This document shows, one piece after another, positions 28,477 to 33,417 of a DNA stretch of 64,000 bases (positions within the stretch are counted from its first letter, which is position 1; each line of letters begins with the position of its first letter). Under the pieces are notes generated by a model, which had not been told where the DNA came from, searched no databases, and saw nothing but the letters and a program-made list of their open reading frames with translations. Location: assembly GCF_000027125.1 (NCBI RefSeq), contig NC_017626.1; one strand, written 5' to 3'. The position numbers and the translations under genes are program-made. The DNA is from Escherichia coli 042 (lineage in GTDB: Bacteria > Pseudomonadota > Gammaproteobacteria > Enterobacterales > Enterobacteriaceae).

Positions 28477-31400
28477 CTAGCGAGAATCATAGTCGTCAGC
28501 AGAACGGTTATCGGAACTGACGCTGTTATCAAACCAGTTATACAGCGCCCAGCTGTCAACATAAGCGCCGGTCTTATTCGCATCGTTCTGATACCAGGTC
28601 GCGTACAGTCCTGCGCTGTAACCGCTGATGCGCCCATCCGATTTATAACCCACACGATTACTCTGAGTATTACTGTGCTGATTGGCGTAGCCTGCCATCA
28701 CGCCAAGATGCCAGCGATCCTGCGCGTTGCTACTCCACTGCGCCAAATCGCCTCCTAGCTGCAATACATAGCGGTTAGCCTGAGTATTTAGCTGGCCGTC
28801 ACCGGTCCTGAAACGTTCGTGCCCCCCGACATGACGCATCCACATACTGCTTGCCGAACCCTGAGAATGCAGTGAATCTGTATACTGCGGCTCACCCAGA
28901 CGGTCGTGTAAGCGATGGCTAAACAGCGAGTTGGCTGCGGCAATGTTGCTGATATAGCTTCCGGCCTCCGGGCGATAAACTGATGGGCCTTCCGGATCCA
29001 CAACAGGGGGATTATTGATGGGATCGGGTGTATCCGGTGGCGTTACGCCTTCCCATTTACTGGTCAGATACCAGTTTTTCTCGTCATTCCCCTTCCCTTT
29101 AGCCAGCGTGTAGACGTAAGCCCCAGCTTCGACAGTTCCGGTGGTCAGCGCGAAGTTACCTGCAGAATTACCGCCAACCTCAATGAGTTCAATACCGTTG
29201 ACCGTTTGTGCACCGACGCCGCCAATGTTATCAACCCGAACGCGAGTGTTCCCTTGGGTATCGCCTTTCACGTTCATCTTATCGGTGGGCGAATTATCGC
29301 CGCCCAGCGTCGCGTTGAACGTCATCAGGCCATTGTTTCCGTTATAGTTACCGTTAACGGTCAGTACATTCCCCGGTTTCCCCCCTTCGCTGTTCATTTG
29401 AACCGTGCCACCATTCTCCAGGTTACCGCCGACAGTGGTTTTAGCGACACGCAGTGTCCCCCCTGGCATAACGTTCACATCACCTGCAGTGGTGACATTT
29501 CCCGACATCACACCGCTGTTATGGATATTAATGTGCTGACTTGCCATATTAATGGCAGAGTCGGAACCGAAAGCAATTTCACCACCCACGATATCCGTCG
29601 TACCCTGATACGCCGCGGAATCGTTGTTAAGAGTCAGGATCCCGGTACCCAGTTTTGTCACATCACCGCTACCGCTGATACTGTGCGTCATCGCCCAGCT
29701 ACGCTCAGTGGAGATGGTGAGCAGGCCATTATTGATAACGGAAGCATCACCCAGGTTTTTCTGCTCGTTGACGCTGAGCGCGCTGCCTGTATCAATGTTG
29801 AATTGCCCCACAAAGCGGCTATTATCGCCATCCAGCTCTACATCTGTCCTGGCGGTTGCGCTCACGATACCCTTCCCGCTTATGCTATTACGCAGTTCTC
29901 CAGTCACGTTTTTTAGCGTTAACAGACCGTCATTGGCAATATTTCCTCTGCCTAACCCCTGCGTATTATCGAGGCTGACTTCCGCATTTGGGCTAATGCT
30001 GGTTAACGCATTGTAGCGTGCATTAAGCCCCTCGATAGCCAGTGTTCCCCCTGTAACATTCAGGTTTCCGCCACCTGTCAGTTCACCCTGACTGATCCCA
30101 CCTTTATTTACCGTGAGCGCCCCCTCTTTGAACAAAACAGTCGAACCCATCTGCCCGGTGAATGTCTCTACCGTCTGCGTCGATCCATTAAGATCGACGA
30201 TGGCCGCGTTGCTGATGTTCAGTTCCCGGGTGTTGCCAAGTGCACCATCCGCATCGGTACGTAATGTCCCCATCTGAACGTAGGTTGCCCCCTGATAGTC
30301 GTTCTGACCGTTGGAAAGCGAAACCTGTCGTACCGTATTGATTGCCAGATCCCCTTCACCACCGATTTTTGCCGACATATCGGCTGTTGCGCCATAGGCT
30401 CCGCCATGTTCGGCTAACGTCAGCTTTTGCCCACCATGGATGTTCAGCGCTTTCAGCCCATAGTTAACGTACAAACCATCACCTGGTGCGGTCGTGAGGC
30501 GGAATCCATAATCACCCTCGGCGACCACTGTTCCGTTTTGTGCAATGTGTAACTTTTTGTCCGCTTCCACCGCGTCGCCCTGTAAATCACGTAACGTTAA
30601 TGAGCCACCCGATCCAATAACCGTTTGCGCCTTCACCAGTTGAACGCCGACATGGCTATCATCGTGTTCCAGCAAATTGAGCGTCGTCAGAGGGTTATTC
30701 GCCATGGGATCATTCCACGGTTTAGGCACGTCGATAAGCACGTCGCCCATCCCGTTTACCTGATAGTTACGGCCTTTCCAGGTGTAGTCACCCGTGCCGA
30801 CAACCAGCGTATCGACGCTGATATATCCCTCCGCAAGCGTCGCAGCAGGTATATCCGTATCGAAAGTGAGCGTACCGCCATTCATGGCTAGTCCACCAAT
30901 GGATTGCTCTCCCACTTTTACCGATGTGGTATTTTCACTGTCAGACTGAAGCATCGCGTGAGTAAGCGCAGCGGTGTTGTCGCGTTCCAGTGTGAAGGTA
31001 CTGTCTTTCAGTTGGGCAACACCGGCGAATTCAGTTCCTGTTGCATGGGTAAAGCCAAACATTTTGTCGGAGGATGACAGCTGCACTCGCATCAAGCCAT
31101 CGCCTTTGAGCGCATTGGTCAGCGTGTAATCTCCTGCACTGTTCGTTGATGCGAGAATGTCGAGCGTACCGGGGCTTGCAATGGTTACTTCACTCGAACC
31201 CATGCCTGTTACCCCATCTGCCGTATGTGACGCAATAGTCAGGAGGCCGTCATTGACCAGCGTTTTACCACTATAAGTATTCCCTGCATTGAACACCGTA
31301 TGGCCTGCATCATGCATCACTTTTCCGTCTTTATCGTCACCCGTAATCAGCATATCGACCTGGTAGCCGGCATCACTGTTATTAGTATGATTAAAGACAA

Positions 31401-33417
31401 AAACGCCTTCGCCAAGACCAAACTCCACTTTCGTCGCATTGGTGATAAACCCGGCATCTGCCGCCGCCTCACCGTGAGCAGCACCAATGTTTAGCGTTCC
31501 TACAGCAGGTTCAAAAACACCTAAGTAAACTTCTCCACCTTCGACATTCAACGTGCCGTTATTCGTCAGGGTTAACGTACCCGTGCCTGTCGTCCCTACG
31601 TTCATATTGAATGTTTCAAGAAGAGAGTTCTGCCCATCCACCCGCACGTCGCCCTTACTTTTGTCATTGAGAGCTATTTGTGTATCACGCGCTTTAACTA
31701 TACCTCCGGTGGTAATATTCAGTTCACCCGTGCCTAATACACCGACCTGTAGCAATTGGGCGTTAGTAGATGACGTTTTTAAATTCCAGAGACTATCCGT
31801 TGAAATATTAACTATCCCCTTACCGGAGGCATTTCCTCCGATAAATCCATAGCCCGTTGAATTAAGAGTGGCACCATTACTGACATTTACGATGCCGCTA
31901 CCAAAATTACCGACATTGATACCTACAGTATCGAACGATGATGTCGCATCCATCAGGTTCAGTGTGCCGATACCGCTTGCTTTATCGCCCAAAAAAGTAA
32001 TATTTTGCGATACGAACTTACCGCCATCGCTGATATTGAGGTTTCCGACACCCGCAACACCAATGGTGGTATAGACATTCTTATTGACCTCCCACATCCC
32101 CCCCGTGGTGATGCTGACATTCCCGACGCCGGTTTCTCCATAACCGAGTGAGCTTCCTCCGTTGCTGACAACAAGCCCCTCATTACTGATATTCATTTCG
32201 CCGTGGCCGTCATAACCAAGATTAGTTCCGAGATTAGTGATAACGGAGTTCTTATCCTTAATAGTAATGTTGCCTGTGCCTGTTTCTTTCATCCCCGCAG
32301 TGATAATTCCCGAATCTACTTTTCCTTCACTCGAGACATTAAGTTCACCGTCGCCAGCATCACCGATATAGATATAGCGGAAAGCTTCGCCCGTTCCGAG
32401 GAAATTCCAATGCCCTTTATCGGTCACGTTGACGACACCGTGGGACCCGTCCTAAACGCCCACAAATGAATATTCTTTGTTATTAATCAGTCCATTATTG
32501 GAAATATTGACTTTGCCATTACCGAAATATCCATTATAGAGTCTGCGTACCGTGATAACAGAGTCTTGATCCTGCACATTCAGGGTTCCGATACCGGTGG
32601 CATTGCCACCGATAATCGTATTTTCAGCCGTAATCAGCCCCCCCTCGCGAATAGTCGCTTCCCCCGTGCCTTGATTGCCAATTTGAAATTCAATTGAGGA
32701 ATCATTATTTTTTATTAGCCACTCGCCACCCTTTTCAACGACAACCTTACCATTGCTGTTCGCCTGATATCCTACAATGGCGACGATTGAACTCGTGACG
32801 TAACCCTTATCCGTAATATTTAATGAGCCTGTACCGTAACTCCCTATTTCGAATAATTCGGTCGTCAGAACCGAGTCCTCTCCCTCAACATTGACCGTCC
32901 CGACGCCTCCTGTCGAAGAACCTATCCTTAAATATCCTCCGTCAACGTGACCCTTCTGTTTAATATTCAGCGTCCCCGTACCGGATTGACCCACATTTAA
33001 AGGCCTTGCATTATTTCCGCTATCATACAATCGCCAGGTGCCACCCAAAACATTAACGGTACCCTCCGAGTCCTCATTAGCGCCAATGACGCTGGTAGTA
33101 ATAGTGGTTAAGGAAGCATTACCGCCAGCCAAAATATTAAGCACTCCAGTGCCATACCACCCAACCAGGTAGGCATCGTAAGCAATATCAGTATTAATAT
33201 TGGTAATCTGACCATTATCAACTTCCAGACTCGCACCACACGCTGAACCGCTTAGTGCCAGCAAAACACCCAGCGTCAATCTACTGAATTTCGTTGTCAG
33301 TCCAGAGGATTTACGCAAATTAACCGTTGATGTTTTACCTACCCTGCGAGTTAATTCCGAGCAGGCCTGAAATACCTGTAGGGTGCAATTCCATATCACG
33401 CGATAGATTCTATTCAT
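28477..33417 (-). pseudogene. yneO: AIDA-I-like autotransporter adhesin (yneO/ydeK/ydeU homolog), interrupted by an in-frame TAG and truncated within the beta-barrel
   Basis: N-terminal extended signal peptide MNRIYRVIWNCTLQV…; repetitive beta-helix passenger (GTGTLNI / GIGTLNV repeats); the same frame continues through one TAG at 32452..32454; the beta-domain begins (…RYVLQLGGD…) but the ORF ends …DDYDSR after about 95 residues, without a C-terminal aromatic. Confidence 0.75.

Follow-up and report, generated by a model that had tools for sequence, protein, structure and literature searches.

The 64,000-nucleotide stretch of Escherichia coli 042 DNA analysed here (NC_017626.1; hereafter the window) carries on its minus strand, at 28477..33417, a gene that by its sequence is a chromosomal type Va autotransporter of the E. 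coli ECSE_1600 family, predicted to be adhesin-like. The gene is dead in the window: it is a pseudogene with two lesions, a premature amber codon and a 987-bp deletion. The corresponding gene of K-12, yneO/ydeK, is itself a pseudogene, and the ECSE_1600-family autotransporter of 1806 aa is its intact counterpart. On the plus strand opposite the gene lie several open reading frames (ORFs) of up to 236 aa. Taking the locus as a whole, we are highly confident that it is an ECSE_1600-family pseudogene with two lesions, and that the plus-strand ORFs are shadow ORFs arising from its codon usage. Everything at the locus belongs to kinds that are already known.

A split and truncated autotransporter gene

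The first-pass annotation of this DNA had read 28477..33417 as a single gene. The interval holds instead two minus-strand ORFs, 32452..33417 (321 aa) and 28477..32427 (1316 aa), which are split by an amber stop at codon 322, and the 3′ end of the gene is deleted. The two ORFs lie in the same frame, because 33417 - 32427 = 990, and the gap between them consists of one stop codon and eight more codons. Flanked by an ORF with a HipA domain (27212..28414; Pfam) and by lsrK (33939..35531), the locus is therefore the hipA-hipB-autotransporter-lsrK region of E. coli. The autotransporter is annotated with hipBA and lsrK as neighbours also in strains ECA64, VCSW5, K-12, F8111, and JCH8249, and the site between hipBA and lsrK is that of the ECSE_1600 family. 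A megablast search with 27000..34000 matched 5424 of 5426 complete E. coli genomes, in which the gene is annotated throughout as 'ECSE_1600 family autotransporter'.

The NCBIfam model of the ECSE_1600 family, NF011422, is a profile of 1806 positions with a curated cut-off of 2335 bits. The 1316-aa fragment scored 3020.5 bits and the intact homologue of ECA64 scored 4156.1 bits, both above the cut-off. Coverage of the model is less than full length, as the two fragments align to positions 1-321 and 331-1646 only, and positions 1647-1806 are deleted. Codons 1-321 (32455..33417, minus strand) encode an ESPR extended signal peptide (residues 1-47; Pfam PF13018, E = 4.9e-15), followed by the first T5SS/PEP-CTERM-type β-helix repeats (TIGR04393). 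The remaining frame, codons 323-1646 (28480..32451, minus strand), encodes β-helix passenger, a PATR repeat, an AC_1 autochaperone/pertactin-like region (Pfam AC_1, 1.1e-25; Pertactin, 4.9e-10), and the first part only of the β-barrel, matching positions 2-281 of 432 in TIGR01414. The intact ECA64 protein comprises ESPR (1-47), nine detected TIGR04393 repeats, PATR, AC_1 (1332-1438), and the autotransporter β-domain PF03797 (1525-1784). The Pfam PF03797 domain was not detected in the window's product, although it was found in this intact homologue.

The passenger had been described as a β-helix rich in Gly, Thr, and Asn with repeats such as GTGTLNI and GIGTLNV, and this description was borne out. 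The protein contains 15.1% G, 9.8% T, and 9.2% N. A motif map revealed 16 copies of G-x-G-x-[LV]-N-[IV] at residues 89-617 (31567..33153, minus strand), mostly spaced 24-26 aa apart, and TIGR04393 marks nine stretches in the intact homologue. The two cited motifs are among the 16 copies, GTGTLNI at residue 146 and GIGTLNV at residue 275. A single-sequence AlphaFold2 model of residues 48-640 was all-β with periodic short strands, with a predicted template-modelling score (pTM) of 0.76 and a mean predicted local distance difference test score (pLDDT) of 68.8. The best matches of this model to the Protein Data Bank by Foldseek were Ag43 (7KOH, 4KH3), TibA (4Q1Q), and pertactin, with E-values from 1e-5 to 2e-1 and template-modelling scores (TM-scores) of 0.2-0.27. 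As the TM-scores are low despite good E-values, these matches lend moderate support to a predicted β-helical passenger with an autochaperone segment.

At its C-terminus, the intact protein matched by sequence the structure of the AIDA-I β-domain (4MEE, E = 1.9e-86), and also the IcsA autochaperone structures 3ML3 and 5KE1. Against the AIDA-I model NF033176, however, the intact homologue scored 337.4 bits, well short of the cut-off of 1200, with the match confined to the C-terminal part. The protein is therefore a relative of AIDA-I and not AIDA-I itself. Its likeness to AIDA-I, Ag43, and TibA thus lies in the β-domain, in a modelled passenger that matches the Ag43 and TibA β-helices, and in the AC_1 and pertactin-like region. 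The repeats of AIDA-I, Ag43, and TibA are 19 aa long. The repeat unit of the ECSE_1600 family differs from these, being about 25 aa with the motif G-x-G-x-L-N-I, of the TIGR04393 type.

The intact protein thus starts with an ESPR signal peptide and ends with an AIDA-I-like β-barrel. Between them lie a predicted right-handed β-helix passenger, whose N-terminal third is made up of 16 degenerate G-x-G-x-L-N-I turns, each about 25 aa long, and a PATR/autochaperone segment. By analogy with other type Va autotransporters, the protein would be exported through Sec by means of the ESPR signal, the β-barrel assembly machinery (BAM) would insert the C-terminal barrel, and the passenger would be threaded out. 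With help from the autochaperone, folding would begin at the passenger's C-terminal end and give an adhesin-like surface rod. The Sec, BAM, and passenger-threading steps are established for type Va proteins; the role of the ECSE_1600 family as an adhesin is a prediction from sequence likeness.

The lesions were located by comparison with ECA64, the closest complete genome, in which the gene is a single intact coding sequence of 5421 nt (1806 aa); coordinates of the ECA64 locus are given as L001. Window positions 27107..28479 correspond to L001 1501..2873 with 0 mismatches, and positions 28480..35498 to L001 3861..10879 with two mismatches in 7019 bp. With the deletion left aside, DNA identity between the window gene and the intact allele of ECA64 is 99.97%. 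The first lesion is the premature amber stop at codon 322 (32452..32454, minus strand), CAG>TAG, a C>T change on the coding strand. Base by base, position 32454 is A in the window and G in ECA64, whose protein reads ...FVGVQDGSHG... at this point. The second lesion is the 987-bp deletion, whose junction lies between 28479 and 28480 (28477..28482). The stretch missing from the window, L001 2874..3860, comprises the final 160 codons of the autotransporter, the intergenic region, the entire hipB gene, and codons 1-18 of hipA. The autotransporter frame now terminates at a TAG (28477-28479, minus strand) whose bases derive from hipA. No microhomology was found in the junction sequences. The lost 160 codons amount to roughly the C-terminal third of the barrel-domain model, last strand included. 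The anatomy of the gene and both of its lesions are thus directly visible, as are the frame geometry, the lack of conservation, and the substitution pattern of the antisense ORFs described below.

In this allele no complete β-barrel stands in one frame with the signal peptide and the passenger, and the amber codon parts the signal peptide from the rest. The ESPR-type N-terminal Sec signal peptide is retained in the 321-aa fragment and is absent from the 1316-aa ORF. Surface display of type Va proteins needs a complete C-terminal barrel with its terminal β-signal. With the signal peptide cut off by the amber codon and the last third of the barrel model missing, neither fragment would be expected to yield a surface-displayed protein.

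Decay of this gene is widespread in the species. KH_005 has a nonsense codon at 243 together with its own 3′ deletion of about 740 bp in the autotransporter locus, K-12 has a +1 frameshift, O157:H7 a +8 frameshift, and GF60 an IS1 insertion in the 5′ end. The passenger region is absent from 1124 of the 5426 genomes, and roughly 4300 E. coli genomes carry the region of the 236-aa plus-strand ORF. The SE11 genome paper described ECSE_1600 as a pertactin-motif autotransporter with truncated or absent orthologues in K-12, O157 Sakai, and B2 strains (PMC2608844). Among the decayed alleles, that of the window is distinguished by its own pair of lesions, amber codon 322 and a 3′ deletion of 987 bp extending into hipA.

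The damaged gene might still be useful if the 321-aa β-helix fragment were exported by Sec, if translation re-initiated at the GTG at 32427, or if the amber codon were occasionally read through. The 321-aa fragment does retain its ESPR signal peptide, the GTG lies 8 codons past the amber codon, and the allele has persisted in a repeatedly sampled lineage. We nevertheless consider such residual function very improbable, since the match to the barrel model stops at position 281 of 432 and PF03797 is lost, the 1316-aa ORF has no signal peptide, and the family decays repeatedly by differing lesions, both in the four strains above and in the SE11 comparison.

Origin of the antisense open reading frames

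The first-pass annotation had noted ORFs of up to 236 aa on the strand opposite the gene and read them as compositional artefacts. The longest is found exactly at 29206..29916 (plus strand). Its start codon is TTG, its frame is the codon-aligned antisense one, and it faces sense residues 1168-1404. Another ORF with a TTG start, of 130 aa (29624..30016, plus strand), occupies a different antisense frame. The ORF list and the strain comparison add three smaller plus-strand shadow ORFs: one of 99 aa (31553..31852), whose GTG start is GTA in four of eight compared strains; one of 88 aa in the codon-aligned frame (30625..30891), whose stop is read through in four strains; and a second of 88 aa (32203..32469), which runs across the position of the amber mutation. 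We judge the two longer ORFs to be non-coding on the evidence of frame geometry, codon counts, shuffled controls, strain comparison, substitution patterns, and database searches presented below.

In the codon-aligned antisense frame, every stop must face TTA, CTA, or TCA in the sense frame. The 1646 codons of the gene include 46 of these (2.8%), and the aligned antisense frame contains 46 stops, in one-to-one correspondence. None of the three occurs in sense codons 1169-1478, so that a stop-free run of 310 codons results, and the first TTG inside it sets the 236-aa ORF. The claim that the passenger's repeats produce the antisense ORFs is not supported: residues 1168-1404 are the PATR/autochaperone end of the passenger, whereas the repeats lie at residues 89-617, where antisense stops are most frequent (3.9% of codons are TTA, CTA, or TCA).

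How often such an ORF arises by chance was estimated from shuffled controls, in which the longest antisense ORF averaged 148-163 aa. When all antisense frames were considered, an ORF of 236 aa or more appeared in 6.7% of the synonymous shuffles and in 2.8% of the codon permutations. For the aligned frame alone, the corresponding values were 3.1% and 1.8%, with a regional null of 2.4%. The 236-aa ORF is thus long but not extraordinary, belonging to the upper tail of chance. The length of the 130-aa ORF was matched or exceeded in 42-62% of shuffles, and the other antisense frames were unremarkable.

Other genes of the window provide an internal control. Shadow ORFs of 206 aa in a 571-aa gene (14188..14808), of 192 and 163 aa in a 489-aa gene (3706..4284 and 4378..4869), and of 151 aa in a 703-aa gene (60860..61315) lie on the plus strand, mostly in the same relative frame, and they too are not to be called genes. 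Relative to gene length, shadow ORFs are equally long in these non-repetitive genes. Compared with shadow ORFs in general, the 236-aa ORF in its codon-aligned frame shows no qualitative difference and is merely the longest example in the window, in the longest gene.

Conservation of the antisense ORFs, which would have spoken for genes, found no support, as they are broken or altered among the compared strains. In F8111 and O157:H7, a TCG>TCA change at sense codon 1376, silent in the sense frame (Ser>Ser), creates TGA at codon 29 of the 236-aa ORF. The sense gene of F8111 is intact though the antisense ORF is broken, so the ORF does not stay open across strains with an intact gene. The 130-aa ORF is interrupted in KH_005, GF60, and K-12. 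In the region of the 236-aa ORF, the ratio of nonsynonymous to synonymous substitution (pN/pS) was 0.05-0.16 in the sense frame and 0.56-1.48 in the antisense frame, or undefined there where no synonymous changes occurred; across the whole gene, it was 0.12-0.22 in sense and 1.14-1.96 in antisense. Sense synonymous divergence in the overlap was 0.54-1.16 times the whole-gene value, with a mean of about 0.86, and was not clearly depressed. The substitutions show selection on the sense frame only, and the gene-wide sense pN/pS of about 0.13-0.2 shows that this frame was under purifying selection before the recent losses.

Neither signals nor databases marked the antisense ORFs as genes. No Shine-Dalgarno sequence was found upstream of the TTG of the 236-aa ORF, and promoter-like sites were not in excess (8 against 9.1 ± 3.5 expected). 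Pfam and NCBIfam contained no family for the antisense ORFs, and an Rfam search of both strands of 27000..34500, with E up to 1, gave 0 hits. The exact antisense products were absent from about 15 billion called proteins, though the same DNA had been gene-called on at least 59 contigs. In the titles and abstracts on yneO, ydeK, or ECSE_1600, no antisense expression at this locus was mentioned, and only the SE11 genome paper was relevant. The view of these ORFs as compositional artefacts is thereby upheld, and they would not be expected to be translated into functional products.

Long shadow ORFs have been claimed as genes in Pseudomonas aeruginosa and in enterohaemorrhagic E. coli. A preprint reports long antisense ORFs of P. 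aeruginosa to be translated and under purifying selection (bioRxiv 10.1101/2021.02.09.430400). In the same way, the ORF at 29206..29916 could be a real, young overlapping gene translated from the plus strand in lineages that keep it open; its length exceeds that of 93-98% of the shuffled controls, and it is open in most of the compared sequences. It seems very improbable that this is so. The ORF is cut at codon 29 by a change that is synonymous in sense, its pN/pS (in round figures 0.6-1.5, or undefined) stands far above that of the sense frame, synonymous divergence in the overlap is not clearly lowered, the TTG start has no Shine-Dalgarno sequence and no excess of promoter-like sites, no family matches it, it has never been called as a protein, and comparable shadow ORFs exist in ordinary neighbouring genes. 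If the ORF were such a young gene within the autochaperone region, it would outlive a sense gene that is already a pseudogene here, an outcome to which we give very little credence.

Several points do weigh against the interpretation of the locus as a pseudogene overlain by shadow ORFs. The 236-aa ORF and the 310-codon run fall in the upper 2-7% of the null distributions and are somewhat longer than typical, and the ORF is open in six of the nine compared sequences. The pN/pS values in its region come from 6-20 substitutions only, among strains that are related and not independent. Antisense transcription or pervasive low-level translation may occur at the locus. Lastly, the loss of function in the two autotransporter fragments is something that we infer.

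DNA repeats and the reality of the lesions

The gene had also been called highly repetitive and, on that ground, prone to recombination and to assembly errors. The first part holds for the N-terminal third of the protein only, and it does not hold for the DNA. Tandem Repeats Finder (TRF), at a score of at least 30, found no tandem repeat in the gene, and a repeat search of the gene's DNA found only imperfect matches of 15-23 nt. The longest exact direct repeat is 11 nt, compared with a mean of 12.1 nt in codon-permuted versions, 99% of which reach at least 11 nt. These three results also rule out DNA repeats as the cause of the antisense ORFs.

The intact alleles of ECA64, VCSW5, F8111, and JCH8249 are all exactly 5421 nt long, at a divergence from the window of up to 2.8%. 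Other strains show indels of +1 (K-12) and +8 (O157:H7) as well as IS1 insertions, with no gain or loss of a repeat unit. Variation in repeat number between strains is ruled out by these observations. In independent data sets, short-read assemblies carry the autotransporter locus identically, on contigs mostly of 20-200 kb. Since DNA-level repeats are absent, allele length is constant, and the locus is assembled identically from independent short-read data, the warnings of recombination and of assembly errors are unsupported. Repeats of a β-helix in the protein do not imply repeats in the DNA, and this gene is no hot spot of recombination and presents no hazard to assembly.

The lesions themselves recur in public data. 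The exact 321-aa product was found on 66 contigs and the exact 1316-aa product on 59 contigs (NCBI, ENA, and Logan; public protein collection), and in the contigs that were fetched the gene order is lsrK, the 321-aa ORF, the 1316-aa ORF, and a 394-aa HipA remnant. Over 9951 bp, one Logan contig agrees with the window at 100% identity; a second contig has a single differing base. The deletion junction was reproduced in SRR15370207, ERR14026413, SRR9062523, and one ENA metagenome contig, and the amber codon in the first three, with 0-1 mismatches. The recurrence of the exact products and the exact DNA in independent public assemblies rules out an artefactual or engineered origin of the lesions. 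The ENA metagenome contig (ERZ27279525 k141_72936; L010 1..2962) matches the window only up to 32472 and then continues into lsr ABC-transporter genes, without the 321-aa ORF and without lsrK; beyond that position it represents either a further rearrangement or an assembly chimera.

The same deletion junction was absent from the 5426 complete RefSeq E. coli genomes. The 987-bp segment belongs to the ordinary genome of the species, at least 80% of it being present in 3714 genomes. As the truncated products occur on 66 and 59 contigs and the junction in none of the complete genomes, the allele comes from a repeatedly sampled lineage that is missing from the 5426 complete RefSeq genomes. It is scarcely credible that errors of sequencing or assembly produced the amber codon and the 987-bp gap in a gene that is truly intact: this reading would suit the absence of the junction from the complete genomes and the intactness of ECA64, which differs by only 2 bases and the gap, but it is contradicted by the exact truncated products on so many contigs, by the repetition of the junction and, in three assemblies, of the amber codon, by the unique, non-repeated sequence of the deleted stretch (hipB, intergenic region, and barrel), and by the lack of any exact DNA repeat above 11 nt in the gene.

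The hipBA remnant and the surroundings of the locus

The 987-bp deletion also struck the neighbouring hipBA toxin-antitoxin module. What is left in the window is a hipA remnant (27212..28479, minus strand) without codons 1-18, the start codon, hipB, or the hipBA promoter region, as judged from the ECA64 annotation (hipA at L001 1606..2928, hipB at 2928..3194). Its retained part shows 100% identity to hipA of ECA64, and the HipA_C domain is preserved. Pfam also matched Couple_hipA, with the profile entered at position 37, and gene callers give a 394-aa product. A type II hipBA module consists of hipB and a full-length hipA behind the hipBA promoter. With the deletion of hipB, of the promoter/operator region, and of codons 1-18 of hipA, this module has ceased to exist as a toxin-antitoxin pair. 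Loss of hipB would be tolerable only when hipA is silenced at the same time. The 987-bp deletion does exactly that, removing hipB and disabling hipA at once.

Other strains have lost parts of hipBA in different ways. A deletion spanning hipB in KH_005 (L003, region 7184) corresponds to about L001 2914-3653, or about 740 bp, with roughly 16 bp of overlap at its junction. KH_005 is thereby ruled out as a carrier of the window's junction, its deletion being a different one. O157:H7 (L006 2328..3508) has a deletion spanning hipB at L001 2672-3289, and GF60 (L004 7275..8459) keeps hipB and has an in-frame 138-nt deletion within hipA. The end points of the hipB-spanning deletions differ among the window, KH_005, and O157:H7, which suggests that they arose independently and that hipBA is recurrently lost or inactivated at this locus. 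If at least three deletions of this kind are independent, removal of the hipBA persistence module along with the hipA start may have been selected repeatedly, or the locus may be a hot spot for deletion. Such recurrent deletion is more probable than an antisense gene, and less novel. A literature search on natural loss of hipBA found nothing specific; one paper that compared four adherent-invasive E. coli strains found hipBA conserved in them.

Upstream of the autotransporter, the region 33418..33938 is AT-rich (GC about 0.35), contains a short tandem repeat, AATTTGGCT x2.3, at 33539..33558, and is presumably the regulatory region of the gene. At a larger scale, comparison with its closest relatives shows the window to be a mosaic. 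In the autotransporter region it is almost identical to ECA64. Left of 27108, the window has a K-12-like yneL/F9-fimbria arrangement and ECA64 has an island with a LysR regulator, while 34000..58000 of the window is 100% identical to GF60. The Logan assembly of SRR9062523 (L011), otherwise identical, is without 689 bp, window 26048..26736. These contain the 5′ end and upstream region of the ORF for the F9 fimbrial major subunit (25679..26290) and part of a yneL-like helix-turn-helix fragment (26676..26930).

For annotation, the plus-strand ORFs opposite the autotransporter are not to be called genes. The minus-strand feature is one pseudogene, neither one intact gene nor two genes, and the neighbouring HipA-domain ORF is a remnant without promoter and without antitoxin. 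The locus illustrates that hipBA can be lost cleanly when a deletion takes hipB together with the start of hipA. It is also one more case of E. coli lineages losing their chromosomal autotransporter adhesins through many independent lesions.

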